A stretch of 62,530 nucleotides of DNA from Methanobacteriota archaeon (GCA_038130705.1 JAYPOA010000003.1:1-62530), one strand, 5' to 3'. Shown: positions 25,252 through 53,202, counted from the stretch's first letter. A program made the numbers and translations. Notes: generated by a model from the sequence alone, not told the origin.

Positions 25252-28200
25252 TTATTGTTGTGGGGGGCGATAATTTGGATCGGCGACCCATTGGTTAGAA
25301 TTCGCATCCCATATCCAGCCTGGATGTTGAGGTTGTGATACCGGAACAGGAGCTGGAGCAGGAGCAGGGGTTGCTTGTGCAGTTGCAGCGACCTTAGCCT
25401 TAGCCCATGCGTATGGGTCTTTTTCCTGTTCTTGAAGTTCTGATAGTTCCATTTCATCATCAATTTCTTCAAATTCAACGAAGAAATATGCACCAATACC
25501 TGCGAGCACTATGACTGCAATGATAACGAGCACTGTAATCAACCAAGTAGACATACCTTCGGATTCTGGGTCACCGGATTGTAGAGAAATATCTACACCA
25601 TCATCCATACCTATTGTTTGAGAGTCACTCTGCTCGAAGAAAATGTCATAGTTACCATCATCTCCTAATTGGGATGATGTTATCTCCATTTTCCACGTTC
25701 CGTCAGGCTTAACAGTGGTTGTATTGAGATAAATTTCACCTTTCACTTTCTTCGCAGTAACCTGAGAACCAGGTAAGCCAGTTCCCCTGAATTCAGCAGA
25801 GTCTTCAAACACAACAACTCCTGTATCGATTCTTTGAGCGCTGAATTGAACTCCCTTAACCATGAAGCTTACCGGGTATGATACAGCAAGGGAATCGTGA
25901 ATATCTCTTGCTTCAACTATTACGTTAATTAGGGACCAGTCAGAAATTTCTGACGAAATCAGATACTTCGAATTCATAGGATTGTAGGTTAGTACTCCGT
26001 CTGGAGAGATCAGAATGTGGTCAAAGTAGTCGTCATCTTCAACAGTTGCTGGACTATCGTAAATATTCCAAGTGAAGTGCTGAGTTGAAGGGCCAATGCC
26101 ATCTGAATCGTTAAAGAAATCCAGCAGATTGATATTTGCACTCTCACATCTATCGAAACTTGAGGATTTTTCGTCACAGAATATTGTCATTGTATCCGGC
26201 CAGTTGTCTTCGTTAACGAATAAAGGAGCAACATTGTCCGCCGCAGTCGGGTTATCGATGATTATTCGAACGCTTTCGATATTTGAATAATCAATCCCAT
26301 CATACGCTTTTACCCTTAGTTCGTATTGTTGGTCATGAATTAGGTTGCTTGTATCCCAATAGGTTGCCCAAGCACCATTTGATGCAAATGATGTAATCGG
26401 GTCTGGACCGTTGTTTAATTCAATACCACTAGCAAGGTCGATTACACTAATCTCGAGCCTGGTAACTTGTCCATCATTATCCCTAGCAACACCACTGATC
26501 AGTGTTTCTTCGTCAGCCCTTATGACGTCATTAGGGAGTGGGTCGCTAATTTGAACGATAGGGATTCTGTTATCGTTATCAATAGTAATTGTAACAACAT
26601 CAGGAGTACATATATCTATTACCTCACGACAATAATTCGAATCACTCGCCCAGACAGTGAATGTATAATCTCCACTTGGAAGGGCTGAGAAATTCCAAGA
26701 GTCAGCCCAAGTAGGGGCACCTCCACTTTCAGCAGCGTAGTTTGCAGAGTAATTATTTGGACCCACAACTGAAAACCAAATATCTGCAATATCGCTTCCT
26801 TGAACTCCTTGGTAATTATCTGATGCAGTACCACTAAAGAGGACTTCTTGGCCATCGTGTGTTGAACCATCAACAGGAGTTTCTAGATTGATTGTTGGTG
26901 GATTAATATTCAATTTGAATACTCTTGTAACCACAGTAGATTCATCTATACCATCAGTAGATCTTACTCTGAAAGTAACATCGTCTTCAAAGTGGTTTGC
27001 CATATCCCATTCAAAACTCCATGTCTTGTAAGGCCAATTTGTCATTGTAACTTCACCATTTGCTCCAGAAGTGTCGGTAGCTTGGTACCAATCCTGACTT
27101 CCATGTGGCTGAATTTCTACTTTCTTCACCACTCCAAATTGACTTAAGTATGAATCATAATCACTAAAATAAGGTCCTGAATTGCCATCGTGTGCTGAAC
27201 CTGAGAGGACTACATTCCTTGCAAATGAGGTCCCATCATTCTGTGAGACCATTACAGAAGGTGCCATGTTTGATAGGTGAACTACCTCATCCACCATCCC
27301 TGTTAGATCGAAATCATGAGATGATGTGCCTTTACCGAATCGAGAAGCTTCAACTGAGTAACTTGGCATCTCCCTTCCTCCAGATTGACAATCTGAGTCT
27401 TGGCCGTCTTTCAGCGTGTCTCCATCATTATCGATGTAATCGCCACATGAATTTTCTCCAGGGTCTGTCACATCATGGTCCCAGTTAGTGTCTATGTGGA
27501 AATCTGAAGGCAGTGAAATCCACGGAGTGTAACCATATGCGTCAGTTGTCAAATTGTAGAGTGAACGCCCTGCTGCATCTTTGATTTTGACTAATGCTTC
27601 ACTCACTTGTGAGTTATCTGCCTTGACTTGATACCTTACTAGTTCAGCTTGCTCTACTTGTACACCCCATGCTGTATTTTGGTTCTGAACATGTATCTTT
27701 GAGCGATCAAAGTTTTGAACGTCAGAAAAGGTAAAAGTCGTGGCATTTTCCTTAAGCTCCATAGACAATGGCATCCCCATAGGTGGCCAATCAGCAGTAA
27801 GTGGAACCAAAAGACACTCTGAAATATCAGTATCACATTCTGCACCAAGCCATGAAAGTTGGACTGGATACAATGTATTGTTACCTGGGTCAGGAACTAT
27901 CTCGCTTTGGATTGAAACACGCGATTCGGTTACGTTGTAAACTTGGGATGCTCCACTGTAAGTATTGTCGTTGAAGTATGCGATTGAACCATACTTGCTC
28001 CCATAATTGTCATCATAATGCGAAATGTTGGCTGCAAAAGCCCCTGCGGTAACTATGCTGTTGCCCTGTGCATTGACGATTCCACCTTTGATTCTGAATC
28101 CATCGCCTATGCTATTTGTGACAATGTTATTGATGAAAGTTGCAGATGACATGTAAACGTGGAAAGCAGGGCAGGGGAAATCTCCGCCGTACATTGCTTG

Positions 28201-29535
28201 AGAGGTACATGTTCCTGAATTGTTAGAAATCTGGTTGTTTGCAAAATAAAGTCTTGATTTGGTTGGGCTTGGGACATTCCAACCCTGGTCTTTGTGGTGA
28301 TATTCGCCAATCAACACTGGTTCCTTTCCAGTGTCAAGGATTGTATTATTTTCTGCAGAGACATCTGATTCCCCGTATATCCAGAATCCATTCCATCCGC
28401 CAATTGGCCCTATTGTATTTTCATTTGCTGTGACGTATGACGACCTGATTCCAAATCCTGATCCTTCAGCGGCTCCTGAAATCGTGTTTCTATTTGCAAC
28501 TACAATTGCTTCGTCGTAAGCTGTAATTCCTGCACCCTCTGCGGTTGTTATCGAATTGTCTTCTATGAAGAAGGTGTATTTTGTAGTACCAGTAGTTAGG
28601 TGAGAGTTTGTGTCAATTGCGTTACATTTGATGTCCATAGAAGAATTTGTGAGGTAGCCACTTGAAGACCTCAAAAATGCACCATATGAGTTTTGAGACA
28701 CTGTAATTGCATCCATCCTTACGAACGAATCCTCAAGGTATATCGCAGATCTACCGCCACCTTGAGAGCCACAATCGGTTTCCGCACCTGTAAATGCGGA
28801 ATTCAAAATTTGCATTACAACTAGTCCTGCCCCAGCACCATATGCTTGGATTGCAGCTCCTTGGAAACCTTCTTCGTCGACACCAACTTCGAAAGTTCCT
28901 CCATCCAGTGTGGGAGATGCTCCGTTGATGGCTAGAACGTTTGTTGTGTTGATATCCGTGAAGCTCGGGTTAGCTACGGAAAGAGATGCACCATCGAATA
29001 CCAGTGCACCGTACTTCCAATTGCCCTGCCCTGTGATGTCCACAGGGATTCCATATGCACCATCTATCACAATGTGATTCATCCTTGTAGCCGCCTGATC
29101 TATTGTTGAATCGATGTAAATTCCTGAACCACAGGACTGGTCAGGATTCCAAAGTCCTGTAAAGTAACAGCGTGCTGTTAGGTTACCACCAGGAGCATTT
29201 CCCCAGATGAATCGAATCGGAGAACCTGTGCTTGCTTGTGTAGCACCACAAGACGAGTCCCCTGCACAAATCGACCCCTGAATATTGATGTTCTTGTCAT
29301 AGGGAACATTGATTGTAGTGCCTGCGTTGATAATTAGTTTAGCACCGCCAGCGATGAGTAAATCGCCATCTAAGTTGTGAACACCCATCCAGGTTTCTGT
29401 TCCAGTAATGGTTCCAGAACTGGTTTCGTTTATTGCCGTTACAGGTGGAATGGTTGTTGCCATCGCCACGAATAGTGACATCATGAAAATACTAACAATT
29501 CCAATGCTTTTTGTCCTCTGTGCTAAAACCGACAT
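25252..29535 (-). CDS. giant (1,427 aa) secreted right-handed beta-helix (PbH1-like) surface protein with Ig-like domains, C-terminal TM anchor and Pro/Ala-rich Trp tail
   Basis: Signal peptide (IGIVSIFMMSLFVAMATT). Repeated N-N-x-I/V turns (ENNTILDTGKEPVLIG, NNQISNNSG, NNIVTNSIGDGFRIKGG, GNSIVTAG). One TSP3-like loop (DYIDNDGDTLKDGQDSDC). Ig-like modules. TM WLITVLVIIAVIVLAGIGAYFFV and a 74-aa tail. Confidence 0.85.
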   Translation of the reverse strand: MSVLAQRTKSIGIVSIFMMSLFVAMATTIPPVTAINETSSGTITGTETWMGVHNLDGDLLIAGGAKLIINAGTTINVPYDKNINIQGSICAGDSSCGATQASTGSPIRFIWGNAPGGNLTARCYFTGLWNPDQSCGSGIYIDSTIDQAATRMNHIVIDGAYGIPVDITGQGNWKYGALVFDGASLSVANPSFTDINTTNVLAINGASPTLDGGTFEVGVDEEGFQGAAIQAYGAGAGLVVMQILNSAFTGAETDCGSQGGGRSAIYLEDSFVRMDAITVSQNSYGAFLRSSSGYLTNSSMDIKCNAIDTNSHLTTGTTKYTFFIEDNSITTAEGAGITAYDEAIVVANRNTISGAAEGSGFGIRSSYVTANENTIGPIGGWNGFWIYGESDVSAENNTILDTGKEPVLIGEYHHKDQGWNVPSPTKSRLYFANNQISNNSGTCTSQAMYGGDFPCPAFHVYMSSATFINNIVTNSIGDGFRIKGGIVNAQGNSIVTAGAFAANISHYDDNYGSKYGSIAYFNDNTYSGASQVYNVTESRVSIQSEIVPDPGNNTLYPVQLSWLGAECDTDISECLLVPLTADWPPMGMPLSMELKENATTFTFSDVQNFDRSKIHVQNQNTAWGVQVEQAELVRYQVKADNSQVSEALVKIKDAAGRSLYNLTTDAYGYTPWISLPSDFHIDTNWDHDVTDPGENSCGDYIDNDGDTLKDGQDSDCQSGGREMPSYSVEASRFGKGTSSHDFDLTGMVDEVVHLSNMAPSVMVSQNDGTSFARNVVLSGSAHDGNSGPYFSDYDSYLSQFGVVKKVEIQPHGSQDWYQATDTSGANGEVTMTNWPYKTWSFEWDMANHFEDDVTFRVRSTDGIDESTVVTRVFKLNINPPTINLETPVDGSTHDGQEVLFSGTASDNYQGVQGSDIADIWFSVVGPNNYSANYAAESGGAPTWADSWNFSALPSGDYTFTVWASDSNYCREVIDICTPDVVTITIDNDNRIPIVQISDPLPNDVIRADEETLISGVARDNDGQVTRLEISVIDLASGIELNNGPDPITSFASNGAWATYWDTSNLIHDQQYELRVKAYDGIDYSNIESVRIIIDNPTAADNVAPLFVNEDNWPDTMTIFCDEKSSSFDRCESANINLLDFFNDSDGIGPSTQHFTWNIYDSPATVEDDDYFDHILISPDGVLTYNPMNSKYLISSEISDWSLINVIVEARDIHDSLAVSYPVSFMVKGVQFSAQRIDTGVVVFEDSAEFRGTGLPGSQVTAKKVKGEIYLNTTTVKPDGTWKMEITSSQLGDDGNYDIFFEQSDSQTIGMDDGVDISLQSGDPESEGMSTWLITVLVIIAVIVLAGIGAYFFVEFEEIDDEMELSELQEQEKDPYAWAKAKVAATAQATPAPAPAPVPVSQPQHPGWIWDANSNQWVADPNYRPPQQ

Positions 29536-29728: not shown

Positions 29729-30955
29729 TTAACAGGTCACGCTATCCTGTATTTCATTCAGCCATTTCATCCCATTTATCACGCCGTAACCTGACTTTTG
29801 GTCGTGAAATATGACTCCATCTTCAGATAGTGTTGAATTCATCAATGCATATTTTACTTCATGAACACAGTCAATATTTTTGTTTTTGAGATGAGGTTCT
29901 GATTCAAGAATTAATGCTAATAGTCCGCTAACTAAAGCTGTGGAGTCGCTCGTTCCTGTTGAGGTGTAATATTGATTGTTATCTCCAGTAGAGATTAAGT
30001 CAACACCAGGTGCAATAATTTCCGGTTTCATATTGGGATGCTGTCTCTCCTGACCTTCAAAATCAGTGCTTTCACCAAGAGAAGATCCGCTCCAAACATT
30101 CCCATCTTTTTGCGAGGCACCCACAGTGATGACTTCAGGGACATTTGATGGAGTTGTAACCCTGCCATCATCCTCATCTCCCCCGTCATTACCAGCAGCA
30201 GCTACAACAAAGATTCCCTTGCTTAATGCAACCTTAACAGCATTTACTGTAGGTCCATTTCTTGGCGCATCAGGGTCATTTACGCCACCTAAGGATAGGG
30301 AAATGATATCTGCACCAAATGTTTCCCAGCACCACTCTATTGCGTTGGCAACAACCTGTTCACTGCCAGTGTTTTCACCTTCACCATCATCTCCTAAAGC
30401 AGCAGCCATTCCAAGGACAATATTAGGCGCCGCGCCTACCATGTAACCATCCGCTGCAACAATGCCTGCCATCATAGTACCGTGGGCTAAAGAGCCTCTG
30501 TCCACGGGTTCAGAAGAACCTGTTGTAAAATCTCTGAAAACTAGTTGCAAATTTTCAAAATCTGAATGAGCAGTATCGATCCCGGTATCGACCATGCAAA
30601 GTCTTACACCTTCGCCAGTAAGTCCAATTTCTTGTAAATCTCTTGCACCTGAATCTTCGTATGCCCACTCAGATGTTGGTGGTGGTATCTCGAGCCAGAA
30701 GAATTCGGATTTTAGAAGTGCCCAAAATAAAATTGTCAAAATGACAAAAATTCCGGCATTAGCAATTTTTTGTTTATTACGCCTTCTAACAGGTACTGTT
30801 TGAACAGGTAAAGGGGCCCATCCAACTACTTCTGACCTCCATCCATCTTGGTGTCCATTTGTAGAGGGATCTACAGCTGAAACTATTCTGAAGTCGGTGG
30901 GTTCTGGCATGAAATCAACATTATCGAGTTGATTATCATCGCCCCACATGAACAT
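29729..30955 (-). CDS. membrane-anchored subtilisin-like serine protease (S8)
   Basis: Catalytic triad contexts CMVDTGIDTAHSDF (Asp), SLAHGTMMAGIVAADG (His) and STGTSDSTALVSGLLAL (Ser). One N-terminal TM (AGIFVILTILFWALL) precedes the catalytic domain. Confidence 0.9.
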   Translation of the reverse strand: MFMWGDDNQLDNVDFMPEPTDFRIVSAVDPSTNGHQDGWRSEVVGWAPLPVQTVPVRRRNKQKIANAGIFVILTILFWALLKSEFFWLEIPPPTSEWAYEDSGARDLQEIGLTGEGVRLCMVDTGIDTAHSDFENLQLVFRDFTTGSSEPVDRGSLAHGTMMAGIVAADGYMVGAAPNIVLGMAAALGDDGEGENTGSEQVVANAIEWCWETFGADIISLSLGGVNDPDAPRNGPTVNAVKVALSKGIFVVAAAGNDGGDEDDGRVTTPSNVPEVITVGASQKDGNVWSGSSLGESTDFEGQERQHPNMKPEIIAPGVDLISTGDNNQYYTSTGTSDSTALVSGLLALILESEPHLKNKNIDCVHEVKYALMNSTLSEDGVIFHDQKSGYGVINGMKWLNEIQDSVTC

Positions 30956-30977
30956 TGATTATCCTTACATCTATTGA

Positions 30978-31015
30978 AGATATGTCTCGAACTACATAAT
31001 TGTCGAGACATATCT
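30978..31015 (-). promoter_or_regulatory. 13-bp perfect inverted repeat (AGATATGTCTCGA / TCGAGACATATCT, 12-nt loop) between the aglB-fusion stop and the subtilase start
   Basis: Read directly. It occupies half of the 76-nt intergenic spacer. On the transcribed (minus) strand it is preceded, not followed, by a T-rich run, so its role as terminator, processing site or operator is open. Confidence 0.4.
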
Positions 31016-31031
31016 CAATAAAAATTTACAA

Positions 31032-34000
31032 TCAGAACCTACTCGATGATCCCTTTCTTGCTACCTTGTATCCACCATATAATGCCAAGATTGTGAGCAT
31101 AAATATGACTACAGTGATCCACGGGGATTCTTCACCATCTGCAACGTTTGAGAATTTTCTCGAGAAGTCTACAGGTTCAACTGTGGAGTCAAGTGGTGTA
31201 TCTATGACATCCAATCTAACTCTCAGGTGTGCTGTTCCAGGAGGCAGATCTGAATATGGGAATTCAGCCCATTCTACATCTTGCGCTGCAATTCTGATTG
31301 TGGTTTGTTGGGTCGGATAGTCAGTACCTTCTTGAGATGCTTCAAGGTATACAATCACGTCTCCAGTTGACAAGAATCCAGTGTTTTCGATAGGCACTCT
31401 AAATATTCCATCCTGATTAGCAAACGCATCTGCATTTCTCGGCTCGATGCTCTCAATCAATATTGCCAAGTCAGCAACAGCAATCACAACCTCAGTCGAG
31501 GCAGTCTGGACTTCAAAGTCGCCTTCACTGGTGGCTTCGAATGCAACATCACAATCATCCAATGTGGAATTTGTCGGCGCATGAACAGTGAATGACTGAC
31601 TTCTGTCATTATTCGCTGCGATAGTTATGTTCGACAATTTGGGCGTGACATCCCATCCTGCGTCTACACATTCCTGAGGTATAGAGGATGTTATGGAAAC
31701 GGTGTCATCTCCATTTCCAAGGTTGTCAACTCTCAGAGTTACTATAACAGTTCCACCATCAGCAACACCGACAGATTCTGGTGCGTCTTCAAGAGTAATG
31801 TTGTATATTTGCGGTACTCTAACGACTACTGTTTCTTCGCTTAATCCACCATCTGCTGTAAATCTCATTTTTACAGTGTGTCCGTCATCATAGGTGATCG
31901 ACTGGTTCTGCAGTGGAAGAGTAATTCTAACATCAACTTGGGTCGTTAGTACCTGATTTTCATCAGAATTATTCTGGCCAATTCCCATTGTGACATTGAT
32001 GCTGTCAACCCAGTTTCCATCTGCATCCTTAAATTCAACTGCCCAGTACTCGGAGTCTTGAGTTAAGTCCAGTGATCCAGATGTACTGAACATATCTTCA
32101 ATTTCTGTTCCATCGTATGTAAGGTTTAGAGTCAACTCTATTACTTCATAATCATTAGAATCAGATTCTTTTGCATTTAACTCGGTTAAGTCATCAACGG
32201 AATAATCTGCCCCAGAATTGATTGAACCTATACTAACAATTAGGTCCGAGTCAACCTTCTTTGTAAATTGCATTTCCTTGTCAAGTGCTGTGTCCTGATC
32301 GATATCAACCACAATACCAGATGAATAAGGCATTGTTAGGTTAAGGTCGTGCTGTACTGTATCAAATTCACTTTCGAGGTCCACACAAGATTCGGCACCT
32401 TCACATGACGGAAGGACAATGTTAACTTCGCCATTGCTATCAAATGCTACATCCCATTCGATTTCTTCTCCAAGAGATATAGTAACGAATACGTCTTCAC
32501 CTACATCTCCTGCTGTCAGAACATTGTTCTGAATGTCAGTCCATGTGCTTGTTAATGCTAATCGGCCACCCTTTCTCATTTCGAGATCTAAGGAAGCACC
32601 TTCCTGAACTGATGCCTCTAATAATCCAACAGCGATTCCTCCACCGTTGTCATCGGTGTCTGTTCCTTCAACAAACACAATCCAGTTACCTGGCATGATA
32701 TTGTCAGACCATGATAAGGTGTCATCAGCATAAACCAGATTAGTAATTACAACCGGGTCTCTGACGATTCCAGATGCAGGATATAATGTCACTTTTGCGT
32801 TCTCTAACCTCATTGCGGTGGGTACGCTGTCAGTTACGTTACCTGACACAGAAACAAGACCTGCTGTTAACTCTAAGTCTCTGCTTTCGTGTGTATCATT
32901 CACAACATAAGCATAAGTTGTGTTGTTTTCGGTGACATATGTTGCTGAATCGAATCCTAATTTTTCGGCATGAATATCATAATCATCTCTGATTGGAACG
33001 AAGACAGACCAAACACCTTCAGCATCTGTCTGTAATGTCCAGTTCCATCCTTTAACAGCTGTGACATTAACTGTAACATTTTCGACTCCTTCTCCCAAGG
33101 ATGGCAAATCATCGTCATTCAAGTCCCAGAATATCTTTCCACCAATCAACACGTATTTGTTAATCTCAACAACACCAACATTCCAGCTACCGTTGTCTAG
33201 GTTATCGGAGAGGTAAACTCCTTCTTCCAATATCCACTGTTCGAGAGTCTCTGTTCTTTCAAGGTGTAATGTCCAATCACCTGGCATTAGAACTTCGGAG
33301 ATGTTTCCGAAGTTATCAGATGGTCCGAGGCTCACATTTCCTAAACCTTCGTTGCTCACTGCAGTAATTCTGGTCGCAGTTACATTAACACCAGTAAACA
33401 TCTCTTTGAGTTGCATTGTTACAGGCATTGCGGTTTGTGTTTGCCAAGAAATATCTCTAACAGCACCAGTGATGTTCAAAACTCCTCTGAAGATTTCTGT
33501 CTCATTGCTGTCCTCAGCAGTGAAGTCTGCTACCTCTACGTACCAGAATCCAGCTGCAACATATTTGGCAAAGGAACCGTTTTCGTCTGTGTTTAGTGGA
33601 TGGAAATCATCCCCTGCTTCATTTCTTAGCCAGACTGTTGAGTTCGCAAGTGGCATGCCATTCTCAGATGTCACGTTACCTGTTACAAGATATTCTGGAA
33701 TTATTGGAATTGATAGAGGCTCACCAGATGGCCCCAATCCTATGTTCAAATTCGGTATGAAATCAGACTGTAAGTAATAGTCAGTTGCATTTTCATCAGT
33801 TGGAAGAGTTGGTGACAACTCGATAGAATATTGACCCACTGACAATTCTACAGTTACTTCTCCAGTTGCCATGTCATAGTCATCTGGTATTACAGTAGCA
33901 TTGATACCGATATCGCTCATAGAAACGATGTCAAATGATGGCATTATTGCGCTTCCATTTTCCCATGTTCCGTCTGTAGTATCAAGGAATATTCTGAAAG

Positions 34001-37000
34001 TAACAGATACGTTGTCAGGTTTTGCAATCAAATCAACTGGTTCCATTTCATATCCTGAATTGTTTTTCAACACTGGCTCAACATTCATTAATTCATTTGA
34101 AACTGTGTAAGTCCAGTTACCCTTGTTTAGATTGAATGTAAATGTTCCAGAGCTGTCAAGTTGTGACCTCCATTCTAATCCATCATCGTTAGTTGCAATG
34201 ATTTCTATCTCTTGAGACCCTGGGATTTCATTACTCCAAACAGCACCTGATCCGTTTGTTATTGAATCTCTAATGTATACTGTACCCTCAACATTTCCTG
34301 TGTTGAGCAAGTAAATATTACCACTTTCAAGGTTTGATGCATTTTCTACAAGAATTCCTCCTGCGTAGGTAGACGAGCCAGAGAATCTGTCCGCTGTGAC
34401 GTGGAATACCATGTTTTCTGGTAATCTCATTGAGAAATTACCATCAAAATCTGATATTGTGTCGATAATTATTGTGCCTGAACGAGCTTCTATCTTCACG
34501 TTGCTTGCTGGCTCAATAGTGGCGTTAGATGGGTCATTCAGATAAATATCTGTTAGATTCGATAATGATTCACCGTTGTCAAGTAGAATCTCCCCCTCTG
34601 CTCTGACGCTGTACAAAGTAGCGTTAATCCAAACGCTAACTGAGTAAGTAAGGTCTAATTCGATGTCATCTGATTCTATATCAAATTCATTCCAAAGGAC
34701 ATATTCTTCATCTCCCTCATCAGAAACAATCCAACTTCCTGTGAATAATTCAACATTAACTACTCCATTTTCGTCAGAAACTGCAGTTTCTATAATCGGT
34801 AACAAGTCTGTGCTTTCTGTATTGGTGAAAGTCAGTGTTCTGTTAGATAGATCTAATCCTGAATTTCCAGCATCCAAATTAATCGTCAAATCCTGCTTTT
34901 GCGGTATGAACGCAGCGAGAGAAATATTCTCAGAATCTTGACCTACTGTAAAGTTCATTGACATCTCATACCAACCATCTCCATCAACGTCAACTCTCCA
35001 TTGGTACTCACCTGCAGCGATTGGACCGTAACTGAAGTTTCCTTCTTCATCAGTGATGATTTCTGCAATTGGCACATTTTCATCAATATCCAAATCAAGA
35101 AGTTCAATCGTCTGATTAGGTAGTGGTTCTGGCGCTCCGGTTTCAGATGACTGTGTCAATAGAGTATCAGCAAAGATAGAACCTGGTAGTACCATGTCGA
35201 GGTTATTAGTTGGAGTTAGTCCAACTTCAACTGGGTCTGGAAGTAATACTTCTTTTCCATTTGGCATGATAGCAATCATGTTGTAAGTACCTGGTAAAAT
35301 TCCGGTCTTGTAGAATGATCCTGGAGCAACCATATCACCAGAGAAAGTTCCCTCACCAATGAACAAACCAGTACCGTTTGCAGTTCCAACTCCCTCAAAC
35401 AGACCTGTTCCTTCGAAGGTTTCTCCGTCAAGATACTTGACAACAGTAACTGGGCCTTCGGCGGTCATTCTTCCAGTGGCATTTATTTCTCCCATGAAGT
35501 AATAAGTGTCAGCCTCATTTGTTAGACAAACAACATGAGTTGAGGTTACTGTTTCATTATCTACAGTCTCATTGAAACTTGGTAGCTCTGGATTTGCCGA
35601 TTCATTTGAGTATTCACAAGATGGAATCGTGTGCTCATACTCAACTGACGTTGCAACTATTGTTCCTGCGCCACTGAATGTTGCACTCGCTGTGTACGAC
35701 CTTCCATCATCAACAATTCTTGTGAAATTACCAGTGAAACCTCTGACAATAGCAGGGTTACCTTGCGTATCAAATGAACCATTATTAGTGAATAATACTT
35801 CACCGGTTCCTTGGATAATTCTAGAATTACCATCTTCAGTTGTAAATGAACCACTGGAGGTTGATAATGTGTAATTGGAAGTCATGCTCCAAATGTTCTT
35901 CAAGATAAAGTCAATACCATCTAATGCTTGACCTTCGAAAGATTCGTTACCAGTCCAGGTGACGGTTCCAGAAATTCCACTAGAATCAACAGCAATATCG
36001 AAGGTATCATCAAATGTTGCTAATCTGTCAGCTTGTTGTCCTGTGATATTGTAAGTTACTTCACCCATCCATGTCATGTTGGATACCTTTCCAAGAAGGG
36101 CAGTTAGTACGTTGGTTTCACGGTCTTCGTTCACATCAACAGTCAAATCTCCAAGACCACTTGAGTATTCGTTTGCTTGGAAACTGTCCTTAGCAAGTGC
36201 GTCATCAAACACACCTGCATATGCAGATGCTCTGATTTTTCCTGCTGGTGCTATGAAACACCAGTTTCCATTTTCATCAGTATCTGTATTACCGATTGGA
36301 ATCCAGTATGTATCGCTGTCAAGGTCGGTCTCATCCTCTCCCGAGAAAGCGTCTCTTTCAATTAGAATTCTGACATCAGAGAGAGGCTGTCCATTATCAG
36401 ACATTGTAACCTGTCCACAAATTTCTGCTCCTGCATAATACTTCATCACCTTAACAAGGGTATTTGATGAACCAAGACCATCGTTTGGATCTTCTGCATT
36501 ATACCAGTTTGCAATTACCATGTGGTTCATCATTGCACCAGGCATTGGCAATGCGTTGGTTAGTATTGAATTTGGAGTACCTGATTGTCCCCAGTGTTGT
36601 CCTGGTTGTTCAGTTGTTGCAAATCCAAGGTTCGGAGAACCGTACCCGATGTAGGTTCTTGCAAGCATAGTATCGAAGAATGCAGGCTTGTGGTCTACTC
36701 TGACGTCTACCAACTGTAGAGGGTCAAAGTCTTGACCAGCCTGCTGATTTAGGATATCCTTCTTCATTTCTTCATCGAATTCCTCTCTGGTCATTTCATC
36801 GTTGAATTGGCCTCTTGAAGTCATGTAAACCTCATCCATGAAGGTTGAGAAGTCCTGACCTGATAGAATTGAAACAGGTGCGAAAATTCCAGTTGGGTTG
36901 CCACCGCTATATTCGGAGTTGTAGCTTCCACCACGAGGGTATAACTTTGTATCAACTGCTAGATATCTGATTTCATGGTCTCTGGTAATCATATCACCAG

Positions 37001-40000
37001 GTGCTCCCTCATAATCCTGAACTGAATAGACCCTGTTGTTTGATAGGTCAGCGAACATTGTGTGTAGCGTATCTGAATCCAGAGATGAAGTTAACAACTG
37101 TGTAATCAAAGCAATTCTAGCGTTTGTGCGGTGGATACCTGTACTTACCGAATCGTATTCTTCAATCAGGTCTGAAGTGTACCAATAATCTCCAGCGATG
37201 TAATAGGTCGCTTCTGTCTTTGTGTCAGCAGGTGACCTGACATTGTTGTTGAATACTGATTCAGCATTTGCGAAATTTAGGTACGCATCACCACTACAGA
37301 TTTCTACTTGTCCTTCATCAGGTATACACGGAATTATTTCTCCATCCTCGTATACTTTGTACATCATTGGTCCGTCTGTATCGACAATTCCGTCGACGAT
37401 ATTGTAACCTTGAGCTAGCACAACATCTCCATTTGTGTGAGTTACTTCATATAGTCTCTCAATAACATCTTCAGAGTCTAAATTGGTTTGAATCTTTACG
37501 AATTCAGATACCTGCTCATCCGAGAGGTACTTACCAATTGTTTGTACGAACGAGTTAGTGTGAACGTTGTTATCGTCATTAGCCAAGTTGTAACTCAAAT
37601 CTGCTTGTGACAATCTCCAGATGAACATCGCAGCGAGGTCATCTTGGTTTCTTGACAATAGCATGTTACCTGCTGCAGAAATACCAGACTGGAAGTTATC
37701 TGCTACTGAAGGGTGGTCTCCAGTTTCAAGTGCTTGGAAACCATAATCCCACCATGATACGAATGCTGGCTTATCGGAATACTTCATCAAACACACGCTT
37801 CCTGAAGAGTCCCAGTCACCTGAGACATCATCACACGCTGATTTTGTTGTGACCCCGACGTGATGTACGTCTTGGTTGGCTAACCATTCGTATGCTAAAT
37901 TCCAACCTCTATCGTTAAATCCTGATCCAAATGAACCAAGATACCATCTTGAATTGTCATCGTATGATGAATCATCGAGTAATGAGAATCCGAAATCGTT
38001 CCATCTTAGGATATCTGGAGCTATGTTGTAAATTGTTTCATCCATGTTTGATTCATGAACAGTTGATGAAGGCATTGCTGCGTCTAATCCATAAGTAGCA
38101 TGCTGAGAGAATATCAACATCAAAACAAGACCAATTGCGCTGAATTGTGGAGTTCTCCAAACAGCTTTTCTTGCGTTAGAGATTCTCTCTCCTGGGGTTC
38201 TAATTCCCATTCTTCTCCACTTCTTCGCCATTTCACCGGCACCGCTTGCTCTCCATAGTCCTGTGATACCCCAAGCTCCCATGACAGCCATTGCAGGTGC
38301 TGCGTTGAAGAGGAATCTTCCAGCTGACCAAGCCATGTAGGATGCGACAAGAACCCACATACCCAAAATTAAGTGAGGCTGATTTTTCTTTACGATTCCA
38401 TCCCACAAAGCGATGAATCCCATTACAATCGCAATAACGAAGACGATTGGCCCGAATGATGCGAATAATTGACCTCTACTCGGAGCACTTGCTTCAGCAA
38501 TTGTTCCGAAAATCTTGTTCTTTGTGAAGTATCCTGAACCAGTGGTAAGTACTTCCCATGCGTTGGAGAGTTCCGCCAGTTGCAGTAAGTACAAAGCCAA
38601 ACCAAATACGAAACCACCTGTGAATAAAGAACCTAGGACCAATAGCCATGGTTTATCTCTAAATCCAGTTGTAATCCAAGCGATTGCTAATGTGAACACA
38701 GCAATGAATACAAGCGGTTGTAGACCGGTTGAATTCCAAACTAAATCCAACTGTGGGTGTGCATAGAACGGAATTACCATGACAAATATTGTACCTAATA
38801 ACAGCAAATTGATTGTTGAAATTGTGGTGCTGTCTTTCTTTCTCAACAAGTTCATTGCAACCTGAACTACGTATGCAAGGAAGATAATTGCAGGACCGTA
38901 TACGAATCCCTTCCAACCCAATGCTACGATACCAAAACATACACCAGCCGCTATGGCATTCATTGATGCAGTTCTCTTTTCTTTCATAACAACCCCGATG
39001 GCGTTGTATATTCCAGACGGCCAAGCGTTAGTCGTACGAGATAGTCTTTCATCTCCGCCGTGCTTAATTGCACGTAGATAGAACATGAATGCCGCAGTCA
39101 GGAACAGCAACACAAACGAGTCGTGGTCAGCCATAGCCCAAGTTGATTTTTGAACGTGGGTCGGCATGAATGCGATTAACCAAGCAGCAAGAACTCCAGC
39201 GCCTTTGCCGAAGTGGTCCTTTGCTATTCCAGCCATAGGGAACACAATTAGTGCACCAAAAATTGCTGGTAGAGCCAGCATTGAATACCAAACAGCCTCG
39301 TCAGATGACAAACCAAGGTTAGTCAAGAGCATTGCACCCATTGCCATCGACCATGAGAATAGAGGTGGTCTTGGGTTGATGCCTCCAACAGGATAATTTC
39401 TGTCAGCATCCCAAATTAGATGTGCATTTTCTACGATGATATAGTCTACTACTCTCTTCATGTACCACGGGTCAGAACCTCCAGTTAAGTCCCATGATTC
39501 TAAGCCGGAGGAATTCATAGATGGTACGAAATACCACTGAATTCTAATCGCTAAACCTGTGAGGAATGCCAGGAAGACCATGATTCCTGCCCAATGGTTG
39601 GACCAGAACACCTTGGCCTGACTTGGCTCGTGTGATTCACGGTTTTTCCATCCTCCGTATTGCTCGTGCGTGGCAAACCAATAGATTACGACACCTATGA
39701 AGAAGGTTATACCAAACCAAATCCATACAGCCCATGTTCCTTCAAGTCTGTCGCTTTCCCAATGAGCTGACTCATACAATGACGAAACGATGTATAACAA
39801 CCACATTGAACCGATAAACAAGGTTCTTGTGTACCACTTCTCAGCGGCCATCCAGGCACAGACTAATGCAACAACACCGGTAAGGGCTGCAGGCCAGAAC
39901 CCAATATATCCGTGATAATTGTCTAAACCAGAGATTCCAAGAATGTTAAGATCACTCAGTGTACCGAAATAATACAGAGTCAGAATGTGGGTTAAGGCCC

Positions 40001-40691
40001 AAACTCCAAGTCCAATTTGAAGTGGAAGTGTTGCTTTGTTCCACTTCCCATCTACAGGTTTGATGTAGCCAAACCATCCAACATCAGTCGCAGGAGTAAG
40101 TACTCCTCTCAAGAGGACAGCTGCGAGTAATCCGAGTACGGAAAAGATACTCCAGGTACTAAAGAAGACGTATCCAACTGCCTCTTGCCATGCTCCGTTT
40201 CTTACATACTCTTCACCTTCAATTACAAGGAGATTAGTTTGCGTATCGGCAAAGTTTGCTGCTGAAACAACAGCAGTCCACAAACCGACCATGCTGAATA
40301 CAAGAACAGTGTTCCATTCGTGCCTACCGCTGTTGTCGAGAAGATATCCGCCAAACATGGTCACCAAGAAAATCATGGCGACGAAGTTGGAATCTGCAAG
40401 ACTTGCAACAACGTTGGAAAGTATCAGTGAAACAATCAATACAGCGAGGGAAACAGATGCTGTAGGGAATGTTATGATTTCTTTCTCACGCAGATAGCGT
40501 GGAGTCATTGCCAAAATTGCACCCAAGGCAATCATGGCAAATGGTGTCATCTCATTCATTTCCAGAACTAAACCGAAATCTAGTCCATAATCCGCTAACA
40601 GAGCCAACAAAATCGCGATGGGTGCTAATAGCCACCCAAGCATAGGTTCTGGGGCTCCAATTTTACTGTCGTTTTCTGTCGACATTTTCAT
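31032..40691 (-). CDS. aglB: giant (3,219 aa) oligosaccharyltransferase AglB/STT3 fusion: extra polytopic N-domain + STT3 core + ~1,800-aa beta-sandwich repeat extension + C-terminal TM
   Basis: WWDYG at nt 37740..37754 (FVSWWDYGFQ). EL1 acidic motif GGSDPWYMKR. TIxE-type motif GTIAEASAP. Many TM helices. The extension has repeated CarboxypepD_reg-like patterns (CGQVTMSDNGQPLSDVRILIE...TDENGNWCFIAPAGKIRASAY; TGNVTSENGMPLANSTVWLRN...TDENGSFAKYVAAGFWYVEV). CARDB-like modules lie near the end. Terminal helix WITVVIFMLTILALYGGY. Confidence 0.9.
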   Translation of the reverse strand: MKMSTENDSKIGAPEPMLGWLLAPIAILLALLADYGLDFGLVLEMNEMTPFAMIALGAILAMTPRYLREKEIITFPTASVSLAVLIVSLILSNVVASLADSNFVAMIFLVTMFGGYLLDNSGRHEWNTVLVFSMVGLWTAVVSAANFADTQTNLLVIEGEEYVRNGAWQEAVGYVFFSTWSIFSVLGLLAAVLLRGVLTPATDVGWFGYIKPVDGKWNKATLPLQIGLGVWALTHILTLYYFGTLSDLNILGISGLDNYHGYIGFWPAALTGVVALVCAWMAAEKWYTRTLFIGSMWLLYIVSSLYESAHWESDRLEGTWAVWIWFGITFFIGVVIYWFATHEQYGGWKNRESHEPSQAKVFWSNHWAGIMVFLAFLTGLAIRIQWYFVPSMNSSGLESWDLTGGSDPWYMKRVVDYIIVENAHLIWDADRNYPVGGINPRPPLFSWSMAMGAMLLTNLGLSSDEAVWYSMLALPAIFGALIVFPMAGIAKDHFGKGAGVLAAWLIAFMPTHVQKSTWAMADHDSFVLLFLTAAFMFYLRAIKHGGDERLSRTTNAWPSGIYNAIGVVMKEKRTASMNAIAAGVCFGIVALGWKGFVYGPAIIFLAYVVQVAMNLLRKKDSTTISTINLLLLGTIFVMVIPFYAHPQLDLVWNSTGLQPLVFIAVFTLAIAWITTGFRDKPWLLVLGSLFTGGFVFGLALYLLQLAELSNAWEVLTTGSGYFTKNKIFGTIAEASAPSRGQLFASFGPIVFVIAIVMGFIALWDGIVKKNQPHLILGMWVLVASYMAWSAGRFLFNAAPAMAVMGAWGITGLWRASGAGEMAKKWRRMGIRTPGERISNARKAVWRTPQFSAIGLVLMLIFSQHATYGLDAAMPSSTVHESNMDETIYNIAPDILRWNDFGFSLLDDSSYDDNSRWYLGSFGSGFNDRGWNLAYEWLANQDVHHVGVTTKSACDDVSGDWDSSGSVCLMKYSDKPAFVSWWDYGFQALETGDHPSVADNFQSGISAAGNMLLSRNQDDLAAMFIWRLSQADLSYNLANDDNNVHTNSFVQTIGKYLSDEQVSEFVKIQTNLDSEDVIERLYEVTHTNGDVVLAQGYNIVDGIVDTDGPMMYKVYEDGEIIPCIPDEGQVEICSGDAYLNFANAESVFNNNVRSPADTKTEATYYIAGDYWYTSDLIEEYDSVSTGIHRTNARIALITQLLTSSLDSDTLHTMFADLSNNRVYSVQDYEGAPGDMITRDHEIRYLAVDTKLYPRGGSYNSEYSGGNPTGIFAPVSILSGQDFSTFMDEVYMTSRGQFNDEMTREEFDEEMKKDILNQQAGQDFDPLQLVDVRVDHKPAFFDTMLARTYIGYGSPNLGFATTEQPGQHWGQSGTPNSILTNALPMPGAMMNHMVIANWYNAEDPNDGLGSSNTLVKVMKYYAGAEICGQVTMSDNGQPLSDVRILIERDAFSGEDETDLDSDTYWIPIGNTDTDENGNWCFIAPAGKIRASAYAGVFDDALAKDSFQANEYSSGLGDLTVDVNEDRETNVLTALLGKVSNMTWMGEVTYNITGQQADRLATFDDTFDIAVDSSGISGTVTWTGNESFEGQALDGIDFILKNIWSMTSNYTLSTSSGSFTTEDGNSRIIQGTGEVLFTNNGSFDTQGNPAIVRGFTGNFTRIVDDGRSYTASATFSGAGTIVATSVEYEHTIPSCEYSNESANPELPSFNETVDNETVTSTHVVCLTNEADTYYFMGEINATGRMTAEGPVTVVKYLDGETFEGTGLFEGVGTANGTGLFIGEGTFSGDMVAPGSFYKTGILPGTYNMIAIMPNGKEVLLPDPVEVGLTPTNNLDMVLPGSIFADTLLTQSSETGAPEPLPNQTIELLDLDIDENVPIAEIITDEEGNFSYGPIAAGEYQWRVDVDGDGWYEMSMNFTVGQDSENISLAAFIPQKQDLTINLDAGNSGLDLSNRTLTFTNTESTDLLPIIETAVSDENGVVNVELFTGSWIVSDEGDEEYVLWNEFDIESDDIELDLTYSVSVWINATLYSVRAEGEILLDNGESLSNLTDIYLNDPSNATIEPASNVKIEARSGTIIIDTISDFDGNFSMRLPENMVFHVTADRFSGSSTYAGGILVENASNLESGNIYLLNTGNVEGTVYIRDSITNGSGAVWSNEIPGSQEIEIIATNDDGLEWRSQLDSSGTFTFNLNKGNWTYTVSNELMNVEPVLKNNSGYEMEPVDLIAKPDNVSVTFRIFLDTTDGTWENGSAIMPSFDIVSMSDIGINATVIPDDYDMATGEVTVELSVGQYSIELSPTLPTDENATDYYLQSDFIPNLNIGLGPSGEPLSIPIIPEYLVTGNVTSENGMPLANSTVWLRNEAGDDFHPLNTDENGSFAKYVAAGFWYVEVADFTAEDSNETEIFRGVLNITGAVRDISWQTQTAMPVTMQLKEMFTGVNVTATRITAVSNEGLGNVSLGPSDNFGNISEVLMPGDWTLHLERTETLEQWILEEGVYLSDNLDNGSWNVGVVEINKYVLIGGKIFWDLNDDDLPSLGEGVENVTVNVTAVKGWNWTLQTDAEGVWSVFVPIRDDYDIHAEKLGFDSATYVTENNTTYAYVVNDTHESRDLELTAGLVSVSGNVTDSVPTAMRLENAKVTLYPASGIVRDPVVITNLVYADDTLSWSDNIMPGNWIVFVEGTDTDDNGGGIAVGLLEASVQEGASLDLEMRKGGRLALTSTWTDIQNNVLTAGDVGEDVFVTISLGEEIEWDVAFDSNGEVNIVLPSCEGAESCVDLESEFDTVQHDLNLTMPYSSGIVVDIDQDTALDKEMQFTKKVDSDLIVSIGSINSGADYSVDDLTELNAKESDSNDYEVIELTLNLTYDGTEIEDMFSTSGSLDLTQDSEYWAVEFKDADGNWVDSINVTMGIGQNNSDENQVLTTQVDVRITLPLQNQSITYDDGHTVKMRFTADGGLSEETVVVRVPQIYNITLEDAPESVGVADGGTVIVTLRVDNLGNGDDTVSITSSIPQECVDAGWDVTPKLSNITIAANNDRSQSFTVHAPTNSTLDDCDVAFEATSEGDFEVQTASTEVVIAVADLAILIESIEPRNADAFANQDGIFRVPIENTGFLSTGDVIVYLEASQEGTDYPTQQTTIRIAAQDVEWAEFPYSDLPPGTAHLRVRLDVIDTPLDSTVEPVDFSRKFSNVADGEESPWITVVIFMLTILALYGGYKVARKGSSSRF
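36420..39600 (-). other. STT3/AglB catalytic core region within the giant ORF (about residues 365-1424)
   Basis: Boundaries come from my manual residue count. STT3 TM1 is at about residues 365-388, followed by the SDPWY loop. WWDYG is at residues 980-984. The first prealbumin-like repeat begins at about residue 1425. Confidence 0.6.
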
Positions 40692-40828: not shown

Positions 40829-42145
40829 TCAATTTTTATTTAGGGCCCTATGACCGATATCTCGTCGATAATGTGAGCCGGACAACTCTATTTGCTCGAT
40901 TAAAGAATACGCCACATTTGCGGCTTCTTGTAAATTCGAGCCGATTCCTGTACAAGACAGAACTCTTCCTCCGTTAGAAACTAAAATCTCATTCTCCAGT
41001 TTTGTACCTGCGTGATTGACCCAACCTTTTTCTGAATTCTCTGGAAGATTTTCAATTAATCTGCCCTTTTCAACCGAACCAGGATAATTTTCGGCAGCGA
41101 GTACAACTGTCATTGCATGATTGTTTGAGAATTGAACATTTACCTCAGACAATGTGTCTGTTGAAGCCGCTTGAAACATCTCACCTAAATCAGAATCTAT
41201 CAATGGCAGTGTTATTTGACATTCGGGGTCTCCAAATCTAACATTGAATTCAACGACATATGGGTCACCGTGAGAATCTATCATCAATCCACAGTATAGC
41301 ACACCCCTGTACGGAACTCTTTGTTTGGAAAGATAAGAATGCATAGGTTTCACAACTCGTTCAACAGTTTTCTGATGCACTTCATCAGTGTAAACTGGTG
41401 CTGGCGCATAAGCTCCCATTCCACCCGTGTTGCGTCCTTTGTCACCTTCGAATTCTCTCTTATGGTCTTGACTAGCTGGTAAGCAAACAAATCCACTACC
41501 ATCCATAACAACCAACATACTTGCTTCCTCACCAGGCAAAAAATCCTCTAGGAGAACTTGCCCGTCCGAATTTATTGATTGTTGGATAAATTCCTTTGCT
41601 TCAATTCGATTTTCTGTAACAACTACACCTTTACCCCCTGCGAGGACATCTCTTTTTATGACCCAAGGGTTTGATGAAAATTCATCGAGAGCAGCATCAA
41701 TATCTGATGCACTATCCAGTACATGGAATTTTGCAGTTGGGACGCCATTTGCCTCCATTACTCGCTTTGCGTGCAATTTACTTCCTTCCAATCTTGCTAA
41801 ATTAGCAACTGGTCCGAAGCAAGGAATATCCATTTTTGCCAGATGGTCAGCTAATCCCTCGCAGAGTGGAGCCTCAGGACCAGCGATAACGAAATCAACA
41901 TCCAGTTGAAAGGCAAGATGGACAAGGTCTGAAACCTCAGAAAAATTATGATTTGTCGCAATATTTGCAGTTCCGGCATTACCTGGAGCGCAATGAATCT
42001 CTGACACTGATTCACTGGAGGAAAGACCGAGACAGATGGCGTGTTCCCTTCCTCCGCCACCGACTACTAATACTGACAATCCAGACATATCGCTTCCATC
42101 TATACGAGGCAAATAAGTCCATCTGAACGAATTTGTTCCATTCAA
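40829..42145 (-). CDS. purD: phosphoribosylamine-glycine ligase (GAR synthetase)
   Basis: LSVLVVGGGGREHAI N-terminus, ATP-grasp region and conserved C-terminal GGRVL...IG. A likely true start is the internal ATG at 42088 (MSGLSVLVVGGGG). Confidence 0.95.
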   Translation of the reverse strand: MNGTNSFRWTYLPRIDGSDMSGLSVLVVGGGGREHAICLGLSSSESVSEIHCAPGNAGTANIATNHNFSEVSDLVHLAFQLDVDFVIAGPEAPLCEGLADHLAKMDIPCFGPVANLARLEGSKLHAKRVMEANGVPTAKFHVLDSASDIDAALDEFSSNPWVIKRDVLAGGKGVVVTENRIEAKEFIQQSINSDGQVLLEDFLPGEEASMLVVMDGSGFVCLPASQDHKREFEGDKGRNTGGMGAYAPAPVYTDEVHQKTVERVVKPMHSYLSKQRVPYRGVLYCGLMIDSHGDPYVVEFNVRFGDPECQITLPLIDSDLGEMFQAASTDTLSEVNVQFSNNHAMTVVLAAENYPGSVEKGRLIENLPENSEKGWVNHAGTKLENEILVSNGGRVLSCTGIGSNLQEAANVAYSLIEQIELSGSHYRRDIGHRALNKN

Positions 42146-46888: not shown

Positions 46889-47014
46889 CCCACATTCTCG
46901 ACCCTCATAACCATTTTGGGAACTTGCCTTTACGAAATGGACATCAGTGAGTCTTTCGATTAAACCACATATTGATATGATATCTCTATTTCGGTGAGGC
47001 TAAGAGGAATAGAA

Positions 47015-47461
47015 ATGGACGAGAAAAATCTCATCATTGCAGAAGCACACTGTGACGGACCGTGTGGGGTCTACGACCCTTCAAGCGCACGAATTGCTGG
47101 AGAAGCAGTTCAGTCAATGACTAACAAAATGCTGGCATTAACCTGCCCATCCACAGATGACGGCCCAGCAATGGCGACATACCTGAACACAATGTCAAGA
47201 TATGCGGCCATTAAGGAAGAAGAAGCACAGAAGTGCAAGGATGAACTCCTTGTCCTGTGGACAGACTTTTTCAAGCCACAACACCTTGAGGCTAACCCAA
47301 ACTTACACGATACGTTTTGGAAAGCAGCTAAACTATGCTCAGCATGTAAGGTAGAGGTTTCTGCAGAACACGCACAAGAACTCATGGATGCAATCGAAGA
47401 TATCCACGGAATGTTCTGGGCGACCAAGGGACGTGAAGTTACTTGGATAAGAGCATCATAA
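47015..47461 (+). CDS. sodN: nickel superoxide dismutase precursor
   Basis: Ni-hook HCDGPCGVYDP directly after an 11-aa leader (MDEKNLIIAEA). GAGGA Shine-Dalgarno-like motif about 8 nt before ATG 47015. The ORF track opens earlier, at GTG 46994. Confidence 0.9.
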   Translation: MDEKNLIIAEAHCDGPCGVYDPSSARIAGEAVQSMTNKMLALTCPSTDDGPAMATYLNTMSRYAAIKEEEAQKCKDELLVLWTDFFKPQHLEANPNLHDTFWKAAKLCSACKVEVSAEHAQELMDAIEDIHGMFWATKGREVTWIRAS

Positions 47462-47747: not shown

Positions 47748-47822
47748 GGTGGACCCGGAGGGACTTGAACCCACGACCGCCCGGTTATGAGCCGGGTGCT
47801 CCACCAACTAAGCTACAGGTCC
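47748..47822 (-). tRNA. tRNA with CAU anticodon (elongator Met, or Ile2 if C34 is modified)
   Basis: Reverse complement reads GGACCTG-TA-GCTT-AGTTGGTG-GAGC-A-CCCGG-CTCATAA-CCGGG-CGGTC-GTGGG-TTCAAGT-CCCTC-CGGGTCC-A(CC). This folds as a cloverleaf with a 7-bp acceptor, 4-bp D stem, 5-bp anticodon stem and a T arm with one U-U mismatch. No intron. Confidence 0.85.
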
Positions 47823-53193: not shown

Positions 53194-53202
53194 TTTTTCA
53201 CC

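Follow-up and report, generated by a model that had tools for sequence, protein, structure and literature searches.

Archaeal N-glycosylation enzymes of the AglB type, such as those of A. fulgidus (AglB-L, 3WAJ/5GMY) and Haloferax volcanii, combine an STT3 membrane domain, bearing an aspartate in external loop 1 (EL1), a DxD-type motif and a TIxE motif, with an external α/β catalytic domain that carries the WWDYG motif, and the way in which such subunits work is well established from the structures of PglB and AglB. In the eukaryotic oligosaccharyltransferase (OST), the catalytic STT3 is accompanied by ribophorin I/Ost1, ribophorin II/Swp1, OST48/Wbp1, DAD1/Ost2, Ost3/6, Ost4 and Ost5. All of the AglB elements listed above recur in a giant protein encoded by a stretch of DNA from a Methanobacteriota archaeon (GCA_038130705.1, JAYPOA010000003.1:1-62530), which at its full length of 62,530 nucleotides is called the window here. 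Judged by its sequence, the gene is a real, intact one for an AglB/STT3 N-glycosylation enzyme, and its architecture is that of an AglB core joined to a 10-helix front domain (the N-domain) and to a sequon-rich external rear part of ~1,800 residues (the extension). To our knowledge, it is about three times the size of any characterised AglB, STT3 or PglB. We consider it probable that this protein is a lineage-specific, ~24-helix "mega-AglB" of the Poseidoniales, that is, an N-oligosaccharyltransferase with an accessory N-domain and a tethered, glycosylated envelope extension. The gene, its front domain and its catalytic core are laid out as follows, with positions in window coordinates and residues (aa) of the translated protein.

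31032..40691, minus strand: whole gene, giant AglB with 24 predicted membrane helices (10 + 13 + 1).
39597..40691, minus strand: N-domain, aa 1-365, 10 helices (AlphaFold2 model, topology, loop conservation).
38082..39596, minus strand: STT3/AglB membrane domain, aa 366-870, ~13 helices (PF02516, TIGR04154, 3WAJ alignment).
39453..39482, minus strand: EL1 acidic motif GGSDPWYMKR, aa 404-413, with D407 as the first catalytic aspartate.
39120..39128, minus strand: second acidic motif, D522-H523-D524, aligned with NDHH of 3WAJ.
38493..38504, minus strand: TIxE motif of external loop 5 (EL5), T730-I-A-E733 (invariance across orthologues).
36420..38081, minus strand: external catalytic domain, aa 871-1424, containing WWDYG (weak Pfam AglB_core-like match at 929-1016; 3VGP, 3VU0).
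37740..37754, minus strand: WWDYG, aa 980-984, aligned with WWDYG of the archaeal/eukaryotic STT3 structures 3VGP, 3VU0 and 8I9P.

A sequence-only reading of the window had described an uninterrupted 9.66-kb open reading frame (ORF) with STT3/AglB hallmarks, ending in a hydrophobic helix followed by KVARKG. The ORF list and the translation bear this out: a single unbroken frame of 3,219 codons runs from ATG to stop, the motif positions quoted for GGSDPWYMKR, GTIAEASAP (aa 729-737) and WWDYG are right, and the terminal helix with KVARKG (aa 3191-3214) is present as claimed. Orthologues begin at the residue corresponding to query Met3 (consensus MSxxN), and the true start may therefore be the ATG at 40685 rather than that at 40691. 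Short ORFs on the opposite strand lie entirely within the protein-conserved frame of the giant gene. No DNA tandem repeat was found in it except for one 52-bp array at chance level, and no overlap with an RNA family or a tRNA was detected.

Both domain families and structures recognise the catalytic core as that of an AglB/STT3/PglB oligosaccharyltransferase (GT-C, CAZy GT66). Pfam STT3 (PF02516) matches aa 406-802 with E 9e-17 (62.1 bits against a cut-off of 24.5), NCBIfam TIGR04154 (archaeo_STT3) matches aa 370-859 with E 6e-48, and the sequence matches in the PDB, whether obtained with the single sequence or with a whole-protein profile, are exclusively to AglB/STT3. These include A. fulgidus AglB-L (3WAJ/5GMY, the best match), the AglB C-terminal domains 3VGP and 3VU0, and eukaryotic STT3 such as 6C26. 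Because residue 4 of 3WAJ aligns at profile position 358 of the giant protein, the region before aa ~365 is extra relative to AglB-L. The count of 13 helices in the STT3 part comes from a hydropathy scan together with a reading of the sequence.

Conservation of the catalytic residues was assessed in a MAFFT alignment of the query with 119 full-length orthologues (120 sequences). GGSDPWYMKR, which aligns with GGNDPWYYYR of 3WAJ, is invariant in 120/120 save for one change at K412; D522-H523-D524 and W980-W-D-Y-G984 are each invariant in 120/120; and T730, A732 and E733 are likewise invariant, with isoleucine or valine at position 731. All three acidic motifs align with their counterparts in 3WAJ. 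D407, D522-H-D524, T730-x-A-E733 and WWDYG are also kept in the most divergent members found. The assignment made by the sequence-only reading is thus upheld by Pfam, NCBIfam, the PDB matches and the invariant motifs, and aa 366-1424 are predicted to constitute a complete AglB, whose catalytic acidic residues and WWDYG are invariant.

The whole architecture is shared by a large family. At least 120 orthologues, named as Candidatus Poseidoniales, Poseidoniaceae or Thalassarchaeaceae, i.e., Marine Group II (MGII) archaea, are full-length and collinear (3138-3245 aa), with 44-93% identity to the query over 99-100% of its length. Family length is 3186±14 aa overall and 1751±13 aa for the extension. 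A genome scan using one genome per species found a relative in 538 species-level genomes, and locus counts given here and below refer to the best 80 loci. Of these, 64 keep the frame open over at least 3,100 codons, 14 are cut by contig ends, and 2 are interrupted internally (L020, from a single-cell genome, and L035). Three single-cell genomes are represented among the 80 loci: one is intact (AH-287-P07), one is the internally interrupted L020, and one is cut by a contig end. Intact frames occur on contigs of 618-661 kb and on one of 1.53 Mb (JAYQHX010000002.1), the latter pilon-polished by its name. A 3,186-codon giant AglB was also found on a contig (NZEQ01000036.1, L034) binned as Verrucomicrobiales bacterium, which is almost certainly a mis-binned Poseidoniales contig.

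Compared with the closest relative (L001), the parts have ratios of nonsynonymous to synonymous substitution (dN/dS) between 0.028 and 0.057: the N-domain has 0.028 and the STT3 membrane part 0.029, the catalytic ectodomain 0.047 and the extension 0.044. Sequences on either side of the junctions are conserved; the only indel-prone part there is a variable linker at aa ~1397-1412, just before the first sandwich domain of the extension, which carries an insertion of ~70 aa in P0233. Throughout the order, by these comparisons, the N-domain and the extension are collinear, conserved in length and strongly constrained by purifying selection. Neither the locus scan nor the protein search turned up a split version of the gene. 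All three parts lie in one ORF in every relative examined, and in this sense the three-part architecture is universal in the Poseidoniales. The same reading had cautioned that such fusions might already be routine and annotated in this lineage; this caution applies, as the fusion is routine in the Poseidoniales and already labelled Stt3 or STT3 domain-containing by JGI and NCBI.

Turning to the N-domain, an AlphaFold2 model made with 19 diverse orthologues contains 10 membrane helices and a small hairpin (predicted local distance difference test, pLDDT, 72.6; predicted template modelling score, pTM, 0.69), in agreement with the 9-10 additional helices in about 350 residues first proposed from the sequence, the domain being ~365 residues long. 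Its putative inside loops hold at least 10 lysines and arginines, versus 2 outside. The even number of helices and this charge distribution would place both ends of the domain in the cytoplasm, and TM1, the first STT3 transmembrane helix, would therefore keep its usual orientation. The best-conserved parts of the N-domain are its cytoplasmic loops (conservation 0.74-0.88), and the most conserved of all are three of them, SGRHEW (121-126), AE(K/R)WxTR (283-289) and YGGWxNRExHEPSxAR (345-360).

No Pfam family was found for the N-domain in the window protein or in 19 orthologues. The Foldseek comparison that had been suggested for these residues was run against the PDB and gave no fold match (best E 0.66, template modelling score ≤0.23). 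Several identities were considered and rejected, namely an OST subunit (no sequence or fold similarity was seen, in a PDB library that includes OST complexes), a duplicated STT3/GT-C membrane module (hhalign probability 0.7%), an internal 5+5 repeat (hhalign 0.25%), and a member of a known flippase family of the MOP/Wzx type (AglR) or ABC type (PglK), for which Pfam and Foldseek gave no match, a result that concerns family membership and not flippase activity itself. A profile search with the N-domain through 1.84 billion representative proteins returned 79 matches, all of them giants of ~3,150-3,200 aa or fragments thereof. Candidate stand-alone N-domain proteins were likewise rejected, as the short matches end in a translated adapter (LLYTSPSPRD), a contig end or a frameshift; one of them, P0250, continues into GGSDPWYMKR, and one cluster has members of 3,276 aa. 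The N-domain is therefore an orphan membrane family that exists only fused to the giant AglB. In function it would be an accessory module of the membrane that acts on the cytoplasmic side, its most plausible task being to dock, or to serve as a scaffold for, partners delivering the lipid-linked glycan or the protein to be modified.

The extension comprises the following parts.

36207..36419, minus strand: first prealbumin-like β-sandwich, aa 1425-1495 (AlphaFold2 strands, pLDDT 72-83).
35292..35981, minus strand: Gly-rich conserved block, aa ~1571-1800, with a run of GxGxF, two invariant cysteines (C1692, C1722) and sequons that are likewise invariant.
32892..35291, minus strand: array of ~8 prealbumin/CnaB-like β-sandwiches, aa 1801-2600, the most sequon-dense stretch.
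31122..32891, minus strand: membrane-proximal external region, aa 2601-3190, with fewer sequons and weak choice_anch_T/NPCBM_assoc/CARDB-like signals.
31035..31121, minus strand: C-terminal helix, aa 3191-3210, and basic cytoplasmic tail ending in RF (hydropathy, family conservation).

Prealbumin/CarboxypepD_reg-like modules, as originally claimed for this region, are supported by Pfam, AlphaFold2, Foldseek and hhalign alike. The first sandwich gives weak CarbopepD_reg_2 and NOMO matches and an hhalign probability of 84% to module D7, and Pfam pieces of the CarboxypepD_reg, SpaA, NOMO, SdrD_B and Big types are found at about six places in the extension. For CarboxypepD_reg (PF13620), the score summed over the protein is 85.5 bits against a cut-off of 32.3, with single domains at 21-31 bits. 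Within the modelled span (aa 1425-2600), aa 1801-2600 are all-β with pLDDT 70-89, and the best Foldseek matches of the model are tandem CnaB/Ig arrays (probability 1.0), namely B. anthracis TIE (E 3.5e-10), SpyCEP, pilins (PitA, RrgB, BcpA), SdrD, an ice adhesin and NOMO. Since the similarity between modules is remote (hhalign probabilities of 61-95%) and is not accompanied by DNA repeats, they are old, diverged copies, and a recent origin by tandem repetition was rejected on the same grounds.

Other claims about the extension fared less uniformly. CARDB-like modules find weak support: NCBIfam choice_anch_T matches aa 2916-3064 with E 1.2e-10 (41 bits against a cut-off of 70) and NPCBM_assoc with E 0.31, CARDB itself (PF07705) has no match in the window protein and is precomputed for three orthologues only, and PF10633 is found in some orthologues. 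The Gly-rich block, which fits neither of the folds named by the sequence-only reading, is the best-conserved sequence of the extension and includes TFEGTGLFEGVGTANGTGLFIGEGTFSG; a profile scan gave no family match for it, and it may be a novel module. The β-sandwich extension and the second membrane anchor both stand, whereas the free stalk does not: because both ends sit in the membrane, the extension is a tethered loop or arch. The terminal helix, the basic tail and the last two residues, (R/P)F, are kept in every member, the most divergent included. This final RF or PF after the basic tail (window 31035-31061) may represent a conserved C-terminal signal. An archaeosortase-type signal was considered and rejected, as no PGF/PEF-like motif (PGF-CTERM) was found before the last helix.

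The abundance of N-x-S/T sequons in the extension, to which the sequence-only reading had drawn attention, goes far beyond chance. There are 52 in the giant protein versus 21.3±4.2 expected (2,000 shuffles, maximum 35; z ~7), and over the 120 aligned sequences the mean is 44.7 (range 33-56) versus 18.3 expected from composition. The excess is directional, as the reversed motif S/T-x-N, counted as a control, reaches 19.1. The extension has 31-64 sequons, versus 13-20 expected, in seven more members, which came from the N-domain search and of which four rank among its weakest full-length matches. About 10 of the sequon positions in the extension are invariant or nearly so (N1538, N1548, N1606, N1772, N1922, N2023, N2245, N2301, N2371 and N2452). 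The catalytic ectodomain (aa 901-1424) has 0 in the giant protein versus 5.0 expected (P ~0.001), and a family mean of 1.2 versus 4.5. Three other large surface proteins of the window, with 17, 30 and 15 sequons versus 15, 19.7 and 15.7 expected, are not comparably enriched. Excess in the extension and depletion in the catalytic ectodomain therefore provide strong, if indirect, evidence of selection on N-glycosylation, which would have acted for it in the extension and against it in the catalytic ectodomain.

Gene order around the giant gene is also conserved, with purD, the giant gene, a membrane-anchored S8 subtilase and a 1,427-aa surface protein following one another in 67-70/80 loci.

40829..42145: purD (GAR synthetase), upstream neighbour (GARS_A, GARS_N and GARS_C; 70/80 loci), minus strand.
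29729..30955: S8 subtilase with a type II membrane anchor (Peptidase_S8 E 1.4e-40; N-terminal basic stretch and helix; downstream in 69/80 loci), minus strand.
25252..29535: 1,427-aa surface protein with signal peptide, β-helix, Big_7 domains and C-terminal helix (Pfam, translation; 67/80 loci), minus strand.

purD is unrelated in function and marks the beginning of a run of envelope genes; the other three form a conserved envelope gene trio. Just past the stop codon of the giant gene, after a T-run, lies a 14-bp inverted repeat (GAGATATGTCTCGA / TCGAGACATATCTT, 12-nt loop; window 30977-31016), ~20 nt upstream of the subtilase start; the two genes may be separated here by a terminator or by a hairpin with a regulatory role. 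Within the run of large surface-protein genes, three consecutive genes at 19142-22697 (plus strand) encode DUF7289, DUF7289 and DUF7266 proteins, which we assume to be possibly pilin-like. Two very large ORFs at 6950-18111 (minus strand) encode proteins of 1,788 and 1,901 aa, for which the only match is a sub-threshold TSP3 repeat; the 1,901-aa protein shows mild sequon enrichment (30 versus 19.7 expected). Amid these envelope genes, an 843-aa STAND-type NTPase (AAA_16/nSTAND6) with an N-terminal helix-turn-helix-like part and C-terminal tetratricopeptide repeats is encoded at 22698-25229 (minus strand). A CDP-archaeol synthase gene in the neighbourhood of the giant gene is consistent with an archaeal host. 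Elsewhere in the window are genes for a nickel superoxide dismutase (46994-47461, plus strand) and tRNA-Met (47748-47822, minus strand), and a phosphate-uptake cluster (52522-59367) comprising PhoU, an ABC ATPase, two permeases, a PhoU/MazE-like protein and a PBP-like binding protein.

These observations suggest the following picture of the mega-AglB at work. By analogy with PglB and AglB, D407, D522/D524 and E733 would hold a divalent cation and activate the acceptor asparagine, WWDYG would bind the serine or threonine at position +2, and the glycan would pass from a dolichol-phosphate-linked donor to N-x-S/T at the outer face of the cytoplasmic membrane. From a cytoplasmic N-terminus, the ten extra helices would bring the chain back to the cytoplasm, so that TM1-13 of STT3 would be oriented normally; ~2,320 residues would lie outside the cell before the last helix re-enters the membrane and leaves the basic tail inside. 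The extension would be acidic, an array of some 15 β-sandwich domains held in the membrane at either end, and would bear many N-glycans, attached by the protein's own active site or by copies nearby. Within the cell's glycoprotein envelope it would be a part of fixed geometry that surrounds the enzyme as a spacer or canopy, and not a variable adhesin. These functions of the extension and of the N-domain are ones that we infer; the self-glycosylation and S-layer-like role first raised by the sequence-only reading may likewise apply. In metatranscriptomes from samples with a highly active MGIIb genus, O1, aglB of an MGIIb genome bin was enriched (PMC9723583), and the transcribed aglB would be the giant gene.

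Some results weigh against this picture. The TIGR04154 score of 163.8 bits is far under the 450-bit cut-off, and the giant protein is therefore a divergent AglB, which this score would place as a relative of the archaeosortase A system-associated TIGR04154 subfamily rather than as a member of it. For the DK/MI motif, which in other such enzymes shapes the Ser/Thr pocket together with WWDYG, neither DxxKxxx(M/I) nor MxxIxxx(I/V/W) could be placed confidently on the C-terminal side of WWDYG, where the alignments to AglB in the PDB stop ~40 residues past WWDYG. Confidence in the N-domain model, derived from 19 sequences, is moderate, and a fold kinship may have been missed. In addition, AlphaFold2 gave no fold for ~230 aa of the extension, corresponding to the Gly-rich block (pLDDT 22-47), and glycosylation in cis and in trans are indistinguishable from the sequence.

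Other explanations of the locus have to be weighed. The presence of a type II-anchored S8 subtilase directly downstream in most of the loci, together with an indel-rich linker, might suggest that the protein is a precursor cut at aa ~1397-1412, possibly by that subtilase, into an ordinary-size AglB (plus N-domain) and a C-terminally anchored, glycosylated, S-layer-like protein of ~1,800 aa. Translation as one chain would then ensure 1:1 output and immediate glycosylation, and the released part would resemble archaeal S-layer glycoproteins, which have Ig-like arrays, N-glycans and a C-terminal anchor. However, no cleavage motif was identified, the strong conservation on either side of the junction is what a folded interface would show, and the gene was nowhere seen split in two. 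Adjacency alone is a weak argument, as the subtilase may serve protein degradation, a known trait of MGII, and we regard processing as unlikely.

The extra parts could instead act as a platform for handling substrates, like the non-catalytic subunits of the eukaryotic OST fused into one chain, keeping secreted proteins that are nascent or unfolded, or else the lipid-linked donor, close to the active site. The logic is alike, with a catalytic STT3, extra helices and β-rich external domains tied by a C-terminal helix, and the NOMO matches from Foldseek and Pfam point to β-sandwich rods of the endoplasmic reticulum (ER) lumen; strong constraint on length and sequence also fits a defined assembly. 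Nevertheless, the N-domain resembles no OST subunit in the PDB library searched, either in sequence or in fold, 1,800 aa far exceed the need, and the density of conserved sequons in the extension suggests a product, not a tool. An assignment of this kind seems improbable.

An attachment stalk fused to the enzyme, comparable to Gram-positive pilins or MSCRAMM B-repeats, would account for the best Foldseek matches, which are to pilins and adhesin stalks (TIE, PitA, RrgB, BcpA, SdrD, ice adhesin), and attachment to particles has been proposed for MGII archaea (PMC6461757). Yet no tip or ligand-binding domain was recognised, and DNA repeats are absent. Both ends of the extension are anchored in the membrane, its length and repeat number are fixed, and its dN/dS is ~0.04, which is the opposite of what typical variable adhesins show and therefore makes an adhesin very doubtful. 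Finally, an assembly chimera or mis-joined gene call, for which nothing speaks except the two internally interrupted loci, is refuted to the point of being virtually impossible by the intact frames in independent assemblies, including long contigs and a single-cell genome, by the full-length orthologues and conserved junctions, and by purifying selection on the parts flanking both junctions.

The tethered mega-AglB is thus the reading we retain, and it has several implications. A conserved, 3,200-residue membrane glycosylation enzyme with its own sequon-decorated ectodomain is a candidate for a major component of the envelope. The N-domain, as a lineage-restricted orphan family with obligatory coupling to AglB, offers a lead on how donor or substrate reaches the enzyme. 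A bolder proposal, quite unlikely as it stands, is that the N-domain, with its conserved cytoplasmic face, is the lipid-handling partner so far missing from archaeal N-glycosylation, one that flips the dolichol-phosphate-linked glycan or recycles the carrier once it is spent and that is covalently coupled to the transferase, and that the extension is the principal envelope-building protein of the Poseidoniales; if true, a single gene would make the cell coat of the surface ocean's most abundant archaea, and also feed and decorate it.

The giant architecture appears to be undescribed in the literature, though the proteins already carry STT3 labels in databases, where hundreds of them are named hypothetical, STT3 domain-containing, glycosyltransferase family 39, or asparagine N-glycosylation enzyme membrane subunit Stt3. 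No description of it was found in the literature on MGII/Poseidoniales, only aglB transcripts, in a survey that covered subscription journals thinly, so that a prior mention is possible. The two large comparative-genomics papers on Poseidoniales contain no mention of glycosylation or the S-layer, and a recent review of archaeal N-glycosylation makes no mention of a giant AglB.

Compared with ordinary AglB, the core (aa 366-1424, ~1,060 aa) matches the longest ones in size. Unlike them, the giant protein has 365 residues with 10 helices before TM1 and ~1,795 residues after the catalytic domain, ending in a 24th helix; it also differs in its archaeo_STT3 score, well under the cut-off, and in that the DK/MI motif was not located. 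The extension is similar in the fold of its repeat unit, and in its beads-on-a-string arrangement, to NOMO of the BOS complex, the pilins SpaA, RrgB and BcpA, the B-repeats of SdrD, and B. anthracis TIE, and NOMO, like the giant protein, ends in a single C-terminal membrane helix. However, CnaB-type stalks are not fused to an enzyme, and the pilins are covalently polymerised and linked to the cell wall; moreover, the modules of the extension, unlike the stalk repeats, are old and diverged and leave no repeats in the DNA. Archaeal S-layer glycoproteins, such as that of Haloferax volcanii, are likewise acidic, with Ig-like arrays, many N-glycosylation sites and a C-terminal anchor, but they have a signal peptide and are separate gene products, and the giant protein has no PGF-CTERM or other sortase motif. 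The eukaryotic OST differs in that the giant protein is one polypeptide with an external part several times larger, and in that its extra parts have no homology or fold match with those of OST. In both, nevertheless, STT3 is ringed by extra helices and by non-cytoplasmic, β-rich domains held by C-terminal helices. This parallel with a multi-subunit enzyme is one of logic, not of ancestry, and the giant AglB demonstrates that a catalytic subunit can gain accessory modules, both in the membrane and outside it, by fusion.

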